From the NCBI GenBank assembly GCA_951406725.2, contig CATOCA020000001.1, forward strand, positions 2,418,001-2,482,000: 64,000 bases of DNA, given 5' to 3'. Below are positions 26,186 through 54,942 of this stretch, piece after piece. Below the pieces are notes generated by a model. The model was not told the DNA's origin. It did not search any database and saw only the letters and a program-made list of their open reading frames with translations. The stretch comes from Octopus vulgaris (lineage: Eukaryota). The translations under genes and the position numbers were made by a program. Every line of letters begins with the position of its first letter. Positions within the stretch are counted from its first letter, which is position 1.

Positions 26186-28045
26186 AATAGCGCGCGTCTA
26201 CGATAAATCTACGATTTAAGAAAAAATTACCATCATTTTTTCCCATTTTTAATGCATTTTTTGCAATTTTTTGGCTATAACTCTCTAAAAATGCTTATAT
26301 GGTTATTTCCATTACAAACCCGAGCAACGCCGGGCGATACTGCTAGTTATATATAAAAATGAAGTTGTGTCAGACTCTGTCTCCTCTGATTTAGATTCCT
26401 AACTACTCCCACATTTTGCGGTGCAATTTAACCAAAAGCGGGTATCTTATAGTCGTGATTCATATCGAGCCCTTCTGGGTATTAGCGCGCGTCTACGATT
26501 AAAAAAAAAATTACCATCATTTTTTCCCATTTTTAATGCATTTTCTTGCTATTTTTTCGCTATAACTCTCTAAAAATGCTTATATAGTTATTTCCCTTAC
26601 AAACCCGAGCAACGCCGGGCGATACTGCTAGTCTTTATATATAAAAGTGAGGTTGTGTGCTGTTTGTCTTATACGATTTAGATTCCTAACTACTCCCACA
26701 TTTTGCGGTGCAGAGTAACCAAAAGCGGGTATCTTATAGTCGTGATTCATATCGAGCCCTTCTGGGTATTAGCGCGCGTCTACGATTTAAAAAAAAATTA
26801 CCATCATTTTTTCCCATTTTTAATGCATTTTTTGCTATTTTTTGGCTATAACTCTCTAAAAATGCTTATATAGTTGTTTCCCTTACAAACCCGAGCAACG
26901 CCGGGCGATACTGCTAGTCTTTTTATATAAAAGTGAGGTTGTGCGCTGTCTGTCTCATACGATTTACATTCCTAACTACTCCCACATTTTGCGGTGCAGA
27001 GTAACCAAAAGCGGGTATCTTATAGTCATGATTCATATCGAGCACTTCTGGGTATTAACGCGCGTCAACGATGAGTCTACGATTTTTAAAACAATTTACC
27101 ATCATTTTTTTCATTTTAATGCATTTTTTCGTTATTATATAAGGGAAGTAACTCTCTAAAAATGTCTACGATGAGTCTACGATTTTAAAAACAATTTACC
27201 ATCATTTTTTTCATTTTAATGCATTTTTTCATTATTATATAAGGGAAGTAACTCTCTAAAAATGTCTACGATGAGTCTACGAATTTTTAAAACAATTTAC
27301 CATCATTTTTTTTCATTTTAATGCATTTTTTCATTATTATATAAGGGAAGTAACTCTCTAAAAATGTCTACGATGAGACAACGATTTAAAAAAAATTTAC
27401 CATCATTTTTCCCCATTTTTAATGCATTTTTTGCTATTTTTTCGCTATAACTCTCTAAAAATGCTTATATGGTTATTTCCCTTACAAACCCAAGCAACGC
27501 CGGGAGATACTTCATAACGAGCCCTTCTGGGTATTAGCGCGCGTCTACGATAAGTCTACGATTTAAAAAAAATTACCATCATTTTTTCCCATTTTTAATG
27601 CATTTTCTTGCTATTTTTTGGCTCTAACTCTCTAAAAATGCTTATATGGTTATTTCCCTTACAAACCCGAGCAACGCCGGGCGATACTTCATAACGAGCC
27701 CTTCTGGGTATTAGCGCGCGTCTACGATAAGTCTACGATTTTAAAAAAATTACCATCATTTTTTCCCATTTTTAATGCATTTTTTGCTATTTTTTGGCTA
27801 TACCTCTCTAAAAATGCTTATATGGTTATTTCCCTTACAAACCCGAGCAACGCCGGGCGCTACTTCATAACGAGCCCTTCTGGGTATTAGCGCGCGTCTA
27901 CGATAAGTCTACGATTTTTAAAAAATTACCATAATTTTTTCCCATTTTTAATGCATTTTTTGCTATTTTTTGGCTATAACTCTCTAAAAATGCTTATATG
28001 GTTATTTCCCTTACAAACCCGAGCAACTCCGGGCGATACTGCTAG
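26186..28045 (+). mobile_element. Tandem array of a non-autonomous Helitron-like element
   Basis: 5' TC+TATATAAAA terminus; subterminal hairpin cccg-agcaacgc-cggg; 3' CTAG at 26343, 26628, 26914 and 28042; head-to-tail CTAG|TC junctions. Confidence 0.85.
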
Positions 28046-28079
28046 TAAATAATAATTTTCTTTTCTCCTAATTTCCTAG

Positions 28080-28178
28080 AATGACACTGCGAAAGATAAC
28101 AAATTACACGTGGCCAAGGAATTGAACCAATATTTCACACGTACCAAAAAACCAAAAGATGGTTTGGCAGTCATAGCA
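28080..28178 (+). CDS. DCLK: DCLK-family kinase, C-terminal tail exon
   Basis: ttcctag acceptor and GCA|gtaagt donor. Translates NDTAKDNKLHVAKELNQYFTRTKKPKDGLAVIA, resembling the vertebrate DCLK tail (...VAGKIKKHF...GVSVIA). Confidence 0.88.
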
Positions 28179-28352
28179 GTAAGTGAAAAATTCTTCAAAT
28201 AATGTGAAAAGACAAATTTTTTTTTAATATTTTAAAAATCTGAGATCGGAGTTCGATCCTGTGTATCTTTCATAGAACCATAATTTTTGGATATGTCTGG
28301 ATTAATTAGGAATTGAATTATAAGCAGAACAATCTGTAGATTGTATTCTGTG

Positions 28353-28760
<408 letters not shown>

Positions 28761-28769
28761 TTTTCTTGT

Positions 28770-28998
28770 TTTTACTTGTTTCAGTCATTTGACTGCGGCC
28801 ATGTTGGAGCACCGCCTTTAATCGAGCAACTCGACCCCGGGACTTATTCTTTGTGAGCCCAGTACTTATTCTATCGGTCTCTTTTGCCGAACCGCTAAGT
28901 GACAGAGACATAAACAACCAGCATCGGTTGTCAAGCAATGCTAGGGGAACAAACACAGACACACAAACACACACACATACACATACATACATATATAG
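28770..28998 (-). mobile_element. SINE family A 3' half
   Basis: Tail and post-microsatellite body only, abutting the hammerhead unit. Confidence 0.85.
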
Positions 28999-29180
28999 AG
29001 AGAAGTAAATATATGGCACAATGAAGTACCGATATTTACTGGAAATAGCGAACGTAATAATACGACGCTCATGTATAACTTCACCGCGTATGTACTAGCA
29101 AAAATGCGTGTGTGCAACAAACTTGAAAAAAATTGTCTTACCTCCAGGGAGAACATCTGAAAGATGAAATACCTAGAAAA

Positions 29181-29270
29181 GGATAATATGGGACCGGCGC
29201 CGGTTTCAGATTTTTCAAGATATGCCTGCCCACATATACTTGATCTATCTTCATCAGCCAAACATATACC
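29181..29270 (-). ncRNA. Type I hammerhead ribozyme (antisense copy)
   Basis: Same fold on the minus strand. CTGATGA is the complement of 29251-29257; stem III is ACCGGCGCCGGT; predicted cleavage between 29192 and 29191. Four differences from the + copy, all pairing-compatible. Confidence 0.9.
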
Positions 29271-29851
29271 ACGACAACCTTTCAGATGTTACCACATTAA
29301 TGCCATTACACTCGACTGAAACGCCGAAACGCTAACAGCACGAGAACGGTGAAGAAGTTTCAATAAATTAGTAATGCAATACTAGAGTATTGCTTTCCAG
29401 TAAAGAATAGCCCGTGAGGGAAAATATACAAAGAAGTAAATATATGGTACAACGAAGTACCGATATTTACTGGAAATAGCGAACGTAATAATACGACGCT
29501 AATGTATAGCTTCACCGCGTATGTACTAGCAAAAATGCGTGTGTGCAACAAACTAGAAAAAATTGTCTTACCTCCAGGGAGAACATTTTTGCTATTACAT
29601 ACGCGGTGAAGCTATACATTAGCGTCGTATTATTACGTTCGCTATTTCCAGTAAATATCGGTACTTCGTTGTGCCATATATTTACTTCTTTGTATATTTT
29701 TCCCTCACGGGCTATTCTTTACTGGAAAGCAATACTCTAGTATTGCATTACTAATTTATTGAAACTTCTTCACCGTTCTCGTGCTGTTAGCGTTTCGGCG
29801 TTTCAGTCGAGTGTAATGGCATTAATGTGGTAACATCTGAAAGGTTGTCGT

Positions 29852-29941
29852 GGTATATGTTTGGCTGATGAAGATAGATCAAGTATATGTGGGCAGGTAT
29901 ATCTTGAAAAATCTGAAACCTGCGCAGGTCCCACATTATCC
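29852..29941 (+). ncRNA. Type I hammerhead ribozyme (sense to DCLK pre-mRNA)
   Basis: Stem I 5' arm ATG-tt-TGG; CTGATGA at 29865-29871; stem II AGAT/ATCT extended by TCAAG/CTTGA and ATATG/TATAT; GAAA at 29915-29918; palindromic stem III ACCTGCGCAGGT; GTC cleavage triplet ending 29930; stem I 3' arm CCA-CAT. Confidence 0.9.
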
Positions 29942-30004
29942 TTTTCACCATCCTCGCAATTTTTTCTAGTTTGTTGCACACACGCATTTTTGCTAGTACA
30001 TACG

Positions 30005-30683
30005 CGGCAAAAGAGACCGATAGAATAAGTACTGGGCTTACAAAGAATAAGTCCCGGGGTCGATGCTGGTGTGTTTACGTCCCCGTCACTTAGCGGTTCG
30101 GCAAAAGAGACCGATAGAATAAGTACTGGGCTTACAAAGAATAAGTCCCGGGGTCGATGCTGGTGTGTTTACGTCCCCGTCACTTAGCGGTTCGGCAAAA
30201 GAGACCGATAGAATAAGTACTGGGCTTACAAAGAATAAGTCCCAGGGTCGATGCTGGTGTGTTTACGTCCCCGTCACCTAGCGGTTCGGCAAAAGAGACC
30301 GATAGAATAAGTACTGGGCTTACAAAGAATAAGTCCCAGGGTCGATGCTGGTGTTTACGTCCCCGTCACTTAGCAGTTCGGCAAAAGAGACCGATAGAAT
30401 AAGTACTGGGCTAACAAAGAATAAGTCCCAGGGTCGATGCTGGTGTGTTTACGTCCCCGTCACCTAGCGGTTCGGCAAAAGAGACCGATAGAATAAGTAC
30501 TGGACTTACAAAGAATAAGTCCCAGGGTCGATCCTGGTGTGTTTACGTCCCCGTCACTTAGCGGTTCGGCAAAAGTGACCGATAGAATAAGTACTGGGCT
30601 TACAAAGAATAAGTCCCGGGGTCGATTTGCTCGGCTAAAGGCAGGCGGTGCTCCAGCATGGCCGCAGTGAAATGACTGAAACG
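30005..30683 (+). repeat. SINE-A 3' half with a ~93-bp internal segment repeated ~7 times
   Basis: Units ggcaaaagagaccgatag...ggtcgatgctgg...gcggttc; the array ends in the normal SINE-A tail. Confidence 0.9.
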
Positions 30684-30779
30684 AATTTTTTTTTCATTAA
30701 AAAAATGGAATTGAAACAGTTTTACGTTTTTTATTGCTTTTTATTTATTTATTTTTTGTTTTTTTGTTTTTTTTTGCAG

Positions 30780-30863
30780 TCGACTGCTCTCGATAAAGGG
30801 TCCAAGTACTTCCGGGGCCGCGGAGCCTTTACTGTGCACCCGAAACAGGACGAAGTCTTTTAA
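30780..30863 (+). CDS. DCLK: DCLK-family kinase, last coding exon
   Basis: Long T tract plus gcag acceptor. Translates STALDKGSKYFRGRGAFTVHPKQDEVF* and matches vertebrate TTALDKERQVFRRRR at the same exon boundary. Confidence 0.88.
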   Translation, partial: STALDKGSKYFRGRGAFTVHPKQDEVF

Positions 30864-31011
30864 GCTCCACCAATGTTCCTTCCACATCTACTTTTATTGA
30901 ATTTTCATTGAAACACAACAACAACAACAACAACAACAACAAGCACAAAGCTATTTGAATTCTCGGCGACTCCAGCAATAGCAAGAACACTAAAAAAAAA
31001 ACTGCAGTGGA

Positions 31012-33400
31012 TGCGCAATGGCCCGGTGGTTAGGGCAGCGGACTCGTGGTCGGAGGATCGCGGTTTCGATTCCCAGACCGGGCGTTGTGTGTGTTTATTG
31101 AGCGAAAACGCCTAAAAGCTCCGCGAGGCTCCGGCAGGGGATTGTGGTGACCCCCTGTTGTACTCTTTCACCACAACTTTCTCTCACTCTTACTTCCTGT
31201 TTCTGTTGTACCTGTATTTCAAAGGGCCGGCCTTGTCACTCTCTGTGTCACGCTGAATATCCTCGAGAACTACGTTAAGGGTGCACGTGTCTGTGGAGTG
31301 CTCAACCACTTACACGTTAATTTCACGAGCAGGCTGTTCCGTTGATTCGGATCAAACGGAACCCTCGTCGTCGTAACCGACGGAGTGCTTGAATTGAGCG
31401 AAAACGCCTAAAAGCTCCACGAGGCTCCGGCAGGGGGTGGTGGCGAGCCCTGTTGTACTCATTTGCCACAACTTTCTCTCACTCTCTCTTTCTGTTTCTT
31501 GGGTAACGTCCCGTCCTGCTGGGGTGGGGGTCACATACGCCACAGAAACCGGGAAACCCAGGCCATGAGCCCGGCTAGGCTTGAAATGGGCGAAATTATT
31601 TTGTGGAGGCGCAATGGCCCAGTGGTTAGGGCAGCGGATTCGTGGTCGGAGGATCGCGGTTTCGATTCCCAGACCGGGCGTTGTGTGTGTTTATTGAGCG
31701 AAAACGCCTAAAAGCTCCACGAGGCTCCGGCAGGGGGTTGTGGCGACCCCTGTTGTACTCATTTGCCACAACTTTCTCTCACTCTTACTTCCTGTTTCTG
31801 TTGTACCTGTTGTACCGGGCGTTGTGAGTGTTTATTGAGCGAAAACACCTAAAAGCACCACGAGGCTCCGGCAGGGGTCGGTGGCGACCCCTGTTGTACT
31901 CTTTCACCACAACTTTCTCTCACTCTTTCTTCCTGTTTCTGTTGTACCTGTATTTCAAAGGGCCGGCCTTGTCACTCTCTGTGTCACGCTGAATATCCCC
32001 GAAACTCCGTTAAGGGTGCACGTGTCTGTGGAGTGCTCAGCCACTTACACGTTAATTTCACGTGCAGGCTGTTCCGTTGATTCGGATCAACCGGAACTCT
32101 CATCGTCGTAACCGACGGAGTGCTCCTGCAGGGGATTGTGGGGACCCCTGTTGTACTCTTTCACCACAACTTTCTCTCACTCTTTCTTCCTGTTTCTGTT
32201 GTACCTGTATTTCAAAGGGCCGGCCTTGTCACTCTCTGTGTCACGCTGAATATCCCCGAGAACTCCGTTAAGGGTGCACGTGTCTGTGGAGTGCTCAGCC
32301 ACTTACACGTTAATTTCACGTGCAGGCTGTTCCGTTGATTCGGATCAACCGGAACTCTCATCGTCGTAACCGACGGAGTGCTCCTGCAGGGGATTGTGGG
32401 GACCCCTGTTGTACTCTTTCACCACAACTTTCTCTCACTCTTACTTCCTGTTTCTGTTGTACCTGTATTTCAAAGGGCCGGCCTTGTCACTCTCTGTGTC
32501 ACGCTGAATATCCCCGAGAACTCCGTTAAGGGTGCACGTGTCTGTGGAGTGCTCAGCCACTTACACGTTAATTTCACGTGCAGGCTGTTCCGTTGATTCG
32601 GATCAACCGGAACTCTCATCGTCGTAACCGACGGAGTGCTCCTGCAGGGGATTGTGGGGACCCCTGTTGTACTCTTTCACCACAACTTTCTCTCACTCTT
32701 ACTTCCTGTTTCTGTTGTACCTGTATTTCAAAGGGCCGGCCTTGTCACTCTCTGTGTCACGCTGAATATCCCCGAGAACTCCGTTAAGGGTGCACGTGTC
32801 TGTGGAGTGCTCAGCCACTTACACGTTAATTTCACGAGCAGGCTGTTCCGTTGATTCGGATCAAACGGTACCCTCGTCGTCGTAACCGACGGAGTGCTTC
32901 AATTGAGTGAAAACGCCTAAAAGCTCTACGAGACTCCGGCAGGGGTCGGTGGCGACCCCTGTTGTACTCATTTGCCACAACTTTTTCTCACTCTCTCTTT
33001 CTGTTTCTTGGGTAACGCTGAGGGGAGGGGGACCACATACGCCACAGAAACCGGGAAACCGGCCCACGAGCCCGGCTAGGCTTGAAAAGGGCGAAATTAT
33101 TTTGTGGAGGCGCAATGGCCCAGTGGTTAGGGCAGCGGATTCGTGGTCGGAGGATCGCGGTTTCGATTCCCAGACCGGGCGTTGTGTGTGTTTATTGAGC
33201 GAAAACACCTAAAAGCTCCACGAGGCTCCGGCCGGGGTCGGTGGCGACCCCCTGTTCTACTTTTTCGCCCCCACTTTCTCTCATACTTTCTTCCTGTTTC
33301 TTGGGTAACGCAGAGGGTGGGGGAACACATACGCCACAGAAACCGGGAAACCGGGCCCATGAGGGTTAGGGTTAGGCTAGGCTTGAAAAGGGCGCACAAT
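31012..33400 (+). mobile_element. SINE family C cluster with 258-bp tandem bodies and an alternative 3' end
   Basis: tRNA-like heads at about 31012, 31604 and 33104; bodies repeated every 258 bp over 31880-32900. Confidence 0.85.
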
Positions 33401-36938: not shown

Positions 36939-36997
36939 GTATTTATATATATATTCATAAATTTATAATTTTATATATATATATGTAGGTATATACC

Positions 36998-37039
<42 letters not shown>

Positions 37040-37040
<1 letters not shown>

Positions 37041-40030
37041 TCAAAAATGGAAGATAAAATTCCTGGAGGACTGGATCGATGCCCATCCAAACCACATCCC
37101 TTTCTTCGTCCTCACTGAAACCCATCTTAGTAACCTCCACTTGGAAGCCGAGGTGAAAGTTAAAAATTTCAAAGCCATTCGTGCTGATCGTGCTGGCAGA
37201 ATAAAGGGTGGGACTGCCATTTATGTTCATGATTCATTCTCAACAGACGCTATGAACATATTTTCCAATGGATACTGCGAAGCAGTCGCTGTATTCAGTC
37301 AAACCAACAACTTAACTGTAGTTGGGCTCTACAGACCACCCCAAACGCCCCTACCATGCTTCAAGGAATGCCTCAACAACATAAAGTGTTTCATTCAGCA
37401 GTGTCAACCTGACAACATTTTAATGACGGGAGACTTCAACCTTCCCGGGGCTGACTGGTCAACAAACAGTCTGCCGCCAGGTTCTTCTCTCTCAACCCCT
37501 GACAGGGAGGCAGTGGAATCGCTTCTTGACTTCATGGATGATTTCTTCCTGTCCCAACTGGTGCTCGAACCAACGAGATGTCACAAAAACGTCTTAGACT
37601 TAATTTTCAGCAATCACACTGATACTATCCACAATATTGCAGTGGAGAAAACTTTACTCTCTGATCATGACATGGTTCTCTGTGATCTGAGATTTCACCG
37701 GCCAAAATGCAAAACAAATGTCATCCCTCCTGTTCATCCATTTGACACTATGGATTTCCACAATGCAAACTGGGAAGCGATCAATAATGATCTTGCACAA
37801 GTCGATTGGTCCTTCACGCACACACACACACCCACTAACATCAAAAAGTCCTGGCAGTCATTTGTAGACACCATTACGAACATATGTGCAAACCACACCC
37901 CATTAAGATCTGCAAACAAATCTAAGTGTCGAATCCCTAGAAATAGAAAATATCTCATCAGGAAAATTAAAAGAATTAACAAAAAAAATCAACGAGCTGA
38001 AATACTGTCAACAGCAACACATCAACCTGACTGCCATCTCGTCGCTAGAGATTAAAAAACATAAACTCCAAAACAACATGATGTCTATCATCAATAGTCA
38101 GCGAAGAGCTGAAGAGGCCTGGGCCATTGAGAAAATCAAACTCAATCCCAAAGTATTCTTTTCATTTGCAAAAAAACACAGAGTCACTGGTTCTACTGTT
38201 GGCCCTCTGATTGATGAAAATGGTACTCTTCAAGACAATGCCAAAACCATGGGAGAGATATTGCAGAAACAATACTGCTCTGTTTTCAGCAATCCTGATA
38301 TCACTGATCTGGTCTGTATCAGTGATGTTACTCGCCAATACACTTTATCGGACATAACCTTTGGCGCTCCTGATGTCTTAGCAGCAATAAAGGAAATGAA
38401 GCATAAATCAGCAGTAGGTCCCGATAGGTTCCCTGCTTGTGTCTTGAAGATGTGTCAACACCAACTTGCACCCACTTGAGCCAATCTGTGGCGGAACTCA
38501 CTGGATGCTGGATATATACCAGAAGACCTATCCCAGTTTGTATTCCCAGTTTTCAAAAAAGGAAACAAATCGCTTGCCGTGAATTACCGTCCAATCTCAC
38601 TCACCTCTCATATCATTAAGGTATTTGAGAGAGTGCTGAGATCGCGTATGACTCACTTCCTTGAGAGTCATGATATGCTGAACTCCAACCAGCATGGATT
38701 CCGTAATGGAAGGGATTGCCTGACGCAGCTACTGCATCATTTTGATGTCATTTTGAGAGCCTTGGGAGAGGGTTCCAACACTGATGTCATCTACCTTGAT
38801 TTCAGCAAGGCCTTTGACAGGTTTGATCATAAGATCCTTTTGGGAAAGCTGTCTAATATTGGTGTCACTAGAAAGCTGCTACAGTGGATCAAGTGCTTCC
38901 TGTCTAACAGAACCCAACATGTTGTAGTCGAAGGAGTCAAATCCAGCCCAGCCAAAGTCAGCAGTGGTGTCCCACAAGGCACGGTGTTGGGCCCACTTCT
39001 CTTCATCATCTACATAAATGATATTACTGACACCATCAAACACAGTAACATCAGAACCTTCGCTGATGATTCCAAGCTCCAGAAGGTCATCAATGGCGTG
39101 GATGACCGAATAAGCCTTCAGTCAGACCTACTGGCTGTTGTCCAATGGGCGGAAAAGAACAACATATTGCTAAACATAGACAAATTCGAACTGATCCACT
39201 TTGGAAGGGAGGACGCTCTGAAACTCCCATACTCCCTTCCTTCTGGAGAAATTATCATGGCGTCCAACAACATCAGAGATTTGGGAGTAACAGTGGACAG
39301 CAACATAAGCTGGGCTACACATATAAGCAGCAAATTTGACATGGCCCGCAGAATGTGTTCCTGGATTCTCAGAACCTTCCAGTCGAGAGATTCCCACACC
39401 ATTATCCTTCTCTTCTTCACTTTTGCCCGACCCCCACCTTGAATACTGTTGTCCACTGTGGTCTCCCTACACGAAACAAAATATTATGAGAATTGAAGCT
39501 CCCCAAAGGTCAATCACAAAAAGATAGATGGCATGTCAGACCTTGACTACTGGGGTAGACTAGAGAAGCTGAAACTGTATTCACTCCAACAACACCGTGA
39601 ACGCTACATTATCTGTATGATGTGGAAAATATTCCATCAGCACTGTCCGAATGATGTTGGCATCACCTTCAAAATACATCCAAGGCTTGGACAACGTGCC
39701 ATCCGTCCACAACAAAAATCTAAATCGCATCACATAACAACAATACGGCACAATTATTTCACCTCAATTGGAACCGCTCTCTTCAACATTACACCAGGAC
39801 ACGTCAAAACAGAAACTGACCACACAAAATTCAAGAAGTCTTTGGACAAATTCCTTCAAACAGTCCCGGACAAACCATCCACACCCGGATATGTCTCCGC
39901 AAACAATAACTGTCTGCTCGAATGGGCCTTGGTGCCCAAATCCTGAATTGAAAGACTTCGCCAGGTGGTGCTATTAAGTTAGACATGGCCTGGGCCAATA
40001 CTGGCCAAAACCTTTCTAAGTTATTCTAAG

Positions 40031-45060: not shown

Positions 45061-48627
<3,567 letters not shown>

Positions 48628-53796: not shown

Positions 53797-54942
53797 GTAT
53801 TTTTCGATGTTATTATTATTATTAAGGTCATTGCCTGGATTCGAACTCGGAATCTTGGGGTTAGTAGCCTGTGGGCAATTATGGAGTGAATTTTATGGGT
53901 TATAAACCTAATATTTCCCTATCCTTCCTTAATACCGGTTCCCATATGCTGCTCATATCTGCACTCGGTCTGCTTAGGAGGATGTTGTGTCTTTGCATAT
54001 GTGCTGCTTCTTTTAGTTTTCCTATTTTCCAGTGGTGTTCTCTGTCTATTATTTTAACTTCATCCCACCCGGATGAGGTGGTCTCCATTTTTCCATACAT
54101 GATCACCTATACCCGTTTTATCAATATCTCCTCGTGTCACAGCTTTGCGATGTGCGTCTACCCTTATTTTGAGGGGGAGGCATGTTTCGCCTTTGTATAA
54201 CCTACCACAGCTGCATGGGATGGAGTACACGCAGTCTTTGGTCATATTCTCTTCTATTGGTGGTTTAACTCGAAGGAAATATTTGCGAAGTGTTGTATTA
54301 CTCTTGAATACTGTCCTGATGTCATATGGACCGCATATCTTTTGTATCTTTTCGGAGAAGCCTTTCACATAGGGTAGACAGACTGTGGACAGTTTATTGG
54401 TTTCATCCTCTCTTTTCTTCATAATTAGAGTGGATTGTATATTTTGGGGTAGTTGTTACTTAATAGATTGTTACTTAGCTTGATCATTTCTTCGTTGTGG
54501 GTATCACAATCGCTACTTATATTCATTGCTCGATGTTTTAGGCACTGAGCAATCCCTCTCTTTACACTGTATGGATTGTAGGAATTGAAGTTGAGGTATC
54601 GTCCGGTGAAGGTCGGCTTGTAGTATACGGATGTCCTGAATCCATACTTGGTGCATGTTATTAATACGTCCAGGAATGCCAGCTGATTGTATTTCTCCTT
54701 TTCCATTGTGAACTGTATGGATGGCTTTATTGAGTTCACATGATATAACAGCACTTGGCCATATTCCTGGTGGGGCCAGACTATAAACGTGTCATCAACA
54801 TATCGCAGACATAGGGTTGGTTTTAGTGGTGTTGATACTAAGATTCACTCCATAATTGCACACGGGCATATGACGCAGTGGTTAAGAGCGCGGGCTACTA
54901 ACCCTAAGATTCCGAGTTCGATTCTCGATTCCAGACAGGGAT

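Follow-up and report, generated by a model that had tools for sequence, protein, structure and literature searches.

Probable origin of a DCLK intron fold-back of Octopus vulgaris as a Penelope-type, two-armed insertion with a hammerhead motif on each strand

A long fold-back is located within the window, i.e. the whole stretch of 64,000 nucleotides analysed, in the last intron (28179-30779) of a copy of the DCLK gene, between the penultimate exon and the last coding one. Very probably, the structure is a non-autonomous, retrozyme-like insertion of Penelope type, composed of two arms in inverted orientation, for which we infer no selected role in DCLK processing. The order of the arms, with the antisense copy preceding the sense one, would result from the mechanism of insertion, since the two-armed, antisense-first form is routine in the family to which the element belongs.

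Two inverted arms, 29176-29537 and 29584-29946, lie around a 46-nt loop, as described in the first-pass annotation of this DNA; in a global alignment they are identical at 356 of 363 columns, differing by six substitutions and one indel, and similarity reaches 98% in both sub-blocks (29176-29424 with 29698-29946, and 29418-29537 with 29584-29703). Further pairing, also anticipated there for 29084-29134 with 29957-30007, was found at 98% between 29084-29131 and 29960-30007, and is present in the fold predicted for 28990-30010, a long hairpin of -757 kcal/mol, a value reported without a shuffle control at that length, the 360-bp arm being far beyond chance. The segment 29957-30007 pairs better (100%) with 29515-29565 than with its outer partner 29084-29131.

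The left side of the structure is made up of 1.4 tandem copies (28993-29586) of a 430-nt unit, indicated as U and numbered on the minus strand from 29586 to 29157. The unit is non-coding, with a GC content of 38.8% and a longest stop-free stretch of 80 codons in the doubled unit. From left to right, the locus consists of U1-163 minus, U1-430 minus, U50-411 plus, 10 nt, and U22-72 plus, the two arms overlapping by the three bases CAT. The elements of the locus are the following.

28778..28990, plus strand: abundant repeat flanking arm 1, identified by its dispersal and presumably SINE-like
28993..29156, minus strand: end piece of arm 1, U1-163, ending at the first standard end of the family, U163, against a TA/CA microsatellite
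29140..29170, minus strand: splice-like motif at the unit junction, with a pyrimidine tract-AG, a 15-nt ATG-initiated segment (29156-29142) and a GTAAG donor, a sequence motif only
29157..29586, minus strand: full 430-nt unit of arm 1, U1-430
29176..29273, minus strand: type I hammerhead, core 29257-29192, stem III allele CCGG-CG-CCGG, predicted cut 29192/29191
29538..29583, no strand assigned: loop or spacer of 46 nt, U4-49, part of arm 1
29584..29586, no strand assigned: inversion junction, the 3-nt CAT overlap of U1 and U50
29584..29946, plus strand: arm 2, inverted second copy, U50-411
29849..29946, plus strand: type I hammerhead, core 29865-29930, stem III allele CCTG-CG-CAGG, predicted cut 29930/29931
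29947..30007, plus strand: remnant of arm 2, in which 10 unrelated nt replace U412-U21 and are followed by U22-72, U73-224 being absent
30005..30626, plus strand: 94-bp tandem array of 6.6 copies, made of pieces of the SINE-like repeat

The remnant of arm 2 joins the SINE-derived array via CGG. The number of 94-bp units, 6.6 in the window, ranges from about 4 to 22 in other copies of the region, and at C31:2.12-2.17 Mb the array apparently spans about 53 kb, both of its ends being seen. Further tandem arrays, with units of about 100, 177, 287, 141 and 258 bp, are found within 26200-28135, 31000-32960 and 8900-11000, and ORF-like units are repeated at 8.9-11 kb; such arrays are typical of a repeat-rich contig.

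Both arms contain the elements of a type I hammerhead core, i.e. CUGANGA, GAAA and UH around three stems, with stem I open. The geometry of the locus is symmetric, each arm carrying a hammerhead on its own strand, because the left arm has its own minus-strand motif. The cut predicted on the plus strand falls 849 nt upstream of the acceptor of the exon encoding the TALDK tail, in line with the distance of about 850 nt previously given. Comparison of the insertion with Rfam produced no matches at the gathering score and seven at E<=10, none of them to a hammerhead, the hairpin having only weak miRNA-type matches; the long stem II may be the reason for the missing hammerhead match. For the isolated plus-strand ribozyme, the lowest-energy fold (-20.5 kcal/mol) is not a hammerhead, which reaches -14.4 kcal/mol when imposed (6.1 higher), while the corresponding values for the minus-strand one are -20.4 and -18.8 kcal/mol (1.6 higher). 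Over 44 family copies, picked by the core pattern, so that the invariance of the core is circular, 96.6% of the cells in the hammerhead stems are paired. Stem III has four pairs, one of which covaries between G-C and U-A; this compensatory change corresponds to one inherited event and is weak support for the hammerhead. Both alleles of the locus are found in the family, CCTG-CG-CAGG in 13 and CCGG-CG-CCGG in 6 of 43 copies counted. Two other matches to the pattern CTGANGA...GAAA are present on the minus strand of the window, at 58118-58194, where convincing stems are absent by eye, and at 46574-46745; both are probably due to chance.

A genome search with the right arm gave 113 matches from the 40 candidates scored out of 1387, and the exact hammerhead core was matched 135 times in the genome and never in the control. 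The geometry of the family was evaluated at 75 dispersed loci, 35 taken by best match (one of them by its junction) and 40 taken from further single-strand core matches on C1-C12, neither sample being random. Two arms were present at 37 of the 75 (17/35 and 20/40), with junction overlaps mostly of 0-6 nt. Thirty-three of these 37 (17/17 and 16/20) end near U163 on one side and near U224 on the other, the remaining four being irregular; in no case do the two sides share an end. The standard ends abut (TA)n, within TA-rich flanks. The orientation of the ribozymes was examined at 85 loci, derived from the first 100 of the 135 core matches and located on C1-C18: exact cores lie on both strands at 11, invariably in minus-then-plus order (11/11), and on one strand only at 74, while same-strand ribozyme tandems occur at four. 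Hammerheads on both strands were detected by alignment at four further loci (L029, L145, L161, L166). Given the minus-then-plus order, the antisense copy is the first to be reached by a read-through transcript, whichever its direction. Copies are mostly 1.4-2.4 units long, and their identity, ranging from 91 to 100%, points to a young family. The U1/U50 CAT junction, besides recurring at six loci on C31, is found identical in an unrelated TA-site insertion, at C5:73691037, with TA on both sides, and is thus a recurrent joining site.

These features closely recall those of Penelope-like elements, which typically consist, according to PMC8557442, of a partial tandem with an adjoining inverted, 5'-truncated copy near the pLTR, carry at one end a tail of 30-40 bp, and are biased towards microsatellites. 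PMC11167929 describes a Penelope protein by which AT-rich DNA is cut on both strands, each of them being then extended, and two start sites of reverse transcription which define the tail; type I hammerheads of low in vitro activity are located within the pseudo-LTRs, as stated in PMC4209133. The octopus family shares with these elements the partial tandem (pseudo-LTR) with 5' truncation, seen both in the family and at the locus, the adjoining inverted, 5'-truncated second arm (37 of 75 dispersed loci), the type I hammerhead, two alternative ends of which the longer is found on one side only, the AT-rich or microsatellite target, and splice-like signals within the repeat. It differs from them in its tail, 61 nt against 30-40, in its stem III of four pairs instead of one or two, in that both arms reach the ribozyme, and in that the doubled unit lacks the RT and GIY-YIG ORF of an autonomous element.

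An autonomous partner was not found in the loci checked, a Penelope ORF being present upstream in none of 40. Another, older Penelope family, represented in the window by a fragment at 54063-54455 (minus strand), GIY-YIG-like by eye and without a Pfam match, was rejected as a partner: at the 30 loci checked it has no similarity to the 430-nt unit and a different ribozyme. The fragment is repeated eight times on C31; the older family counts 3612 candidates genome-wide (78-88% outside C31), and the hammerhead found in its relatives is a minimal one, unlike that of the unit. The literature searches brought up no description of the young octopus family, which the supplementary repeat libraries of PMC8557442 or PMC9068888 might already contain.

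A relationship to metazoan non-LTR retrozymes is also apparent. PMC7229834 and bioRxiv 10.64898/2026.07.22.740005 define these as derivatives of Penelope elements, with units of 150-450 nt and a GC content below 45%. Size and composition of the octopus unit (430 nt, 38.8%), its non-coding nature, the type I hammerhead and the dispersal of copies all agree with this definition. In contrast to such retrozymes, copies of mostly 1.4-2.4 units prevail, same-strand ribozyme tandems are limited to 4 of 85 loci, inverted arms are common, and the locus under study has one ribozyme per strand and no same-strand tandem.

The Penelope-type insertion may have been generated as follows. A Penelope RT-endonuclease, supplied in trans, would cut both strands of a TA-rich target, and each target strand would prime one cDNA, starting from either U163 or U224 on the element RNA; the asymmetry between these two ends suggests that reverse transcription starts at a different RNA site on each of the primed strands. 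A head-to-head junction of the two cDNAs would then form through a few matching bases, in this case CAT. The arms probably derive from two RNAs, because they carry different stem III alleles, CCGG in left arms and mostly CCTG in right ones, both common family-wide. Subsequently, arm 2 would have lost by deletion its outer end, U412-U21 and U73-224, and the 3' half of DCLK, presumably at a later time, would have undergone many duplications on C31, in which the palindrome was copied with it. Target, two ends, anatomy and frequency of the geometry are all observed in the family, and the U1/U50 junction of the unrelated C5 insertion also favours this origin. Against it stand the partner, absent from 40 upstream flanks and not provided by the one Penelope family compared, and the 61-nt tail, longer than the 30-40 nt quoted in PMC8557442.

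The fate of the palindrome was followed in the eight copies of the last DCLK intron found on C31. The palindrome is intact at 2.12, 2.45 (the window) and 9.57 Mb. At 3.71 Mb the spacer is flipped, at 7.79 Mb half of the spacer has been made palindromic, at 7.84 Mb the right arm and the last coding exon are deleted, and at 2.72 Mb the whole structure is deleted together with its flank. The copy at 8.99 Mb is garbled: about 350 nt following the SINE-like repeat align, with many deletions, to the loop and the right arm, with a score of 203 against at most 109 for shuffled sequences (n=30), and this looks like a failure of long-read consensus at the hairpin. When copies are compared, left arms group together (1-5 differences), with arm-specific variants swapped in patches. 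As judged from sequence comparison, these states fit an unstable DNA palindrome, which after the duplications would have undergone spacer inversion, patchy arm exchange, possibly by gene conversion, and deletions, although flips, swaps and frameshifts could in part be mimicked by consensus or polishing errors.

Neither of the two most altered copies was retained as an uninterrupted site: that at 8.99 Mb was rejected as a pre-insertion allele, being a garbled version of the palindrome, and that at 2.72 Mb was rejected as an empty site and scored as a deletion, flanking unique DNA and the SINE being also gone. A role of the palindrome as a centre of the large C31 duplications found no support, as the turning point of the head-to-head pair near 7.81 Mb is more than 15 kb away. 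Large palindromes with arm-to-arm conversion and spacer inversion are known from sex chromosomes, where they extend over tens of kb. The octopus copies share with them the spacer flip, in one copy, the patchy exchange of arm variants and the deletions, but the structure is only 0.8 kb long and of retroelement origin, and its changes may partly be assembly errors.

The host of the insertion is itself a partial gene. The exons present in the window, all on the plus strand, are the following.

6956-7089, plus strand: DCLK exon a, defined by its match to the O. bimaculoides protein
13668-13745, plus strand: DCLK exon b
15702-15798, plus strand: DCLK exon c
25401-25481, plus strand: DCLK exon d
28080..28178, plus strand: penultimate DCLK exon e
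30780..30863, plus strand: last coding DCLK exon f, STALDK...EVF stop, present in 7 copies, all on C31

These exons encode only the kinase C-lobe, their match to the O. bimaculoides protein (645 aa) beginning at residue 456. Upstream exons are absent from the 100 kb preceding the window, from the 20 kb preceding two other copies and from the 10 kb preceding a third. A genome search placed exon c in 13 positions (12 on C31), exon e in 8 and exon f in 7; DCLK 3' fragments are distributed over C31 from 2.1 to 9.6 Mb and at C28:9.32 Mb, for a total of about 13 partial copies, several of them broken, which diverge by 1-4%, unique intron DNA included. The doublecortin half, searched in the assembly, gave only a 35-40% paralog on C17, and the exons for the kinase N-lobe were found neither by a less sensitive whole-protein genome search nor in the upstream stretches inspected. 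The C17 locus was rejected as the true DCLK, being a 35-56% paralog of that of O. bimaculoides, and so were doublecortin matches on C24, which do not match the N-terminal half of the orthologue. The former (C17:8.14-8.22 Mb) is exon-poor, with an inverted duplicate of the kinase part at 8.14 Mb. Two LINE remnants with endonuclease and RT domains (Pfam PF14529, PF03372, PF00078) are also found in the window, at 36961-38052 (plus strand) and at 19162-21260 (minus strand), the latter lying antisense in the intron between exons c and d.

DCLK protein records are limited to fragments of 95-168 aa in O. vulgaris and of 146-187 aa in O. sinensis, with no full-length or N-terminal form among them, whereas full-length proteins are on record for O. 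bimaculoides and Argonauta. The missing full-length gene reflects either a lineage-specific loss or the same assembly gap occurring twice. No paper on octopus DCLK was found in a literature search judged by title and beginning of the abstract. Five copies contain a full exon a, which is interrupted by indels in three of them, while a fourth shows a stop in exon c; some of these defects may be consensus errors, and only the window copy has six exons with AG/GT sites and an open frame, together with two private missense changes, A477S and L539P. An active kinase requires the N-lobe and the catalytic loop; the window copy cannot make one, unless its 5' half exists outside the assembly.

The antisense-before-sense order had initially been interpreted as a switch, in which the hairpin mutes the ribozyme within the DCLK pre-mRNA until ADAR editing or a helicase frees it and the last exon is cut off. 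Some data are compatible with this scheme: geometry and predicted energies permit muting, the window copy has its frame open over exons a-f with AG/GT sites, stem III has four pairs with one compensatory change in the family, and squid introns commonly have their repeats edited, as reported in PMC9068888. The scheme is nonetheless highly unlikely. Two arms are an ordinary arrangement in this family; the host copy is a duplicate truncated at its 5' side, with two missense changes of its own, and its 5' half was found neither by the assembly search nor in the upstream stretches inspected; and in two of eight copies the structure, or its sense arm, is lost or broken; moreover, a Penelope hammerhead tested in vitro was cleaved only with the protein of the element, according to PMC11167929. 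Release by editing did not withstand calculation either. In a model treating each edited A as unpairable, 30% editing leaves a duplex of -109 kcal/mol or stronger, with all five core adenosines unedited at p = 0.17, while 50% editing leaves -78 kcal/mol and p = 0.03; editing should therefore inactivate rather than release the ribozyme in this model, because heavy editing also hits the core adenosines while the duplex persists; a helicase might still release it. The long duplex is a plausible substrate of ADAR or Dicer, and editing of the hairpin, if found, would be ordinary, given the editing known from squid intronic repeats (PMC9068888). Cleavage within an intron, in addition, does not necessarily prevent splicing (Dye 2006, cited by PMC4410947).

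As for sequestration of the ribozyme, also proposed at first pass, the antisense arm does come first, and the duplex over the ribozyme was calculated at -169.9 kcal/mol, against -14.4 for the plus-strand hammerhead fold: if transcribed, the hairpin would be expected to mute the ribozyme. That such protection explains why the insertion is tolerated gained no support. Passive tolerance would imply that two-armed insertions persist in introns more than single sense-strand copies, their hairpin silencing the ribozyme. This is quite improbable: the duplex is strongly favoured energetically, and a depletion of vertebrate retrozymes from introns is reported in bioRxiv 10.64898/2026.07.22.740005, but 74 of 85 loci have an exact core on one strand only, and protection would be superfluous for a copy that is truncated and redundant. 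The palindrome, or its copies, could alternatively have been produced by the assembly, through a fold-back read or a false duplication. The deletion-rich copy at 8.99 Mb indicates that the assembly struggles at the hairpin, and the two raw DNA runs inspected over 28580-30900 gave 1 and 16 reads, which did not confirm the junction. An artefact is nevertheless extremely unlikely, because read-back would give identical arms, whereas these differ at sites common to the copies and match two real family alleles; furthermore, the same junction occurs at six loci with differing flanks and at the unrelated C5 site, and the unique intron DNA of the copies has diverged by 1-4%. Over the same 28580-30900 stretch, which does not include exon e, two contig sets, whose RNA origin is a guess, revealed no loop joint and no splice joint; of the 13 differences listed by kind, one was A>G.

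A role in the host has been proposed for some intronic ribozymes, such as that of mammalian CPEB3 and the ultraconserved hammerheads of amniote introns. They share with the putative octopus ribozyme a motif of self-cleaving type, an intronic position and the proximity of a downstream exon; however, they are conserved, single-locus motifs, while the octopus ribozyme belongs to a recent, multi-copy insertion, is masked by its own antisense and resides in a gene fragment. The window copy may still be the end of a real gene with an unassembled 5' half, which weighs against denying the insertion a function. It would then be the transcribed end of O. vulgaris DCLK, with its 5' half unassembled or as a short isoform starting from the first Met of exon a, and the last-intron hammerhead, muted by its own antisense arm, would be freed when a helicase unwinds the duplex or the left arm is lost, uncoupling the TALDK tail exon. 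We regard this as highly improbable; if true, a single insertion would have created a natural ribozyme switch that masks itself, and we know of no earlier self-masked genomic ribozyme.

As a switch of DCLK the fold-back would matter, but the evidence points to a by-product of insertion. For the host gene, the seemingly missing full-length form and the amplification of its 3' half may matter more than the fold-back itself. For the repeat family, the insertion follows a clean genomic rule, by which the ends on the two sides differ in 33 of 37 two-armed insertions and coincide in none, and which fits priming from two strands.
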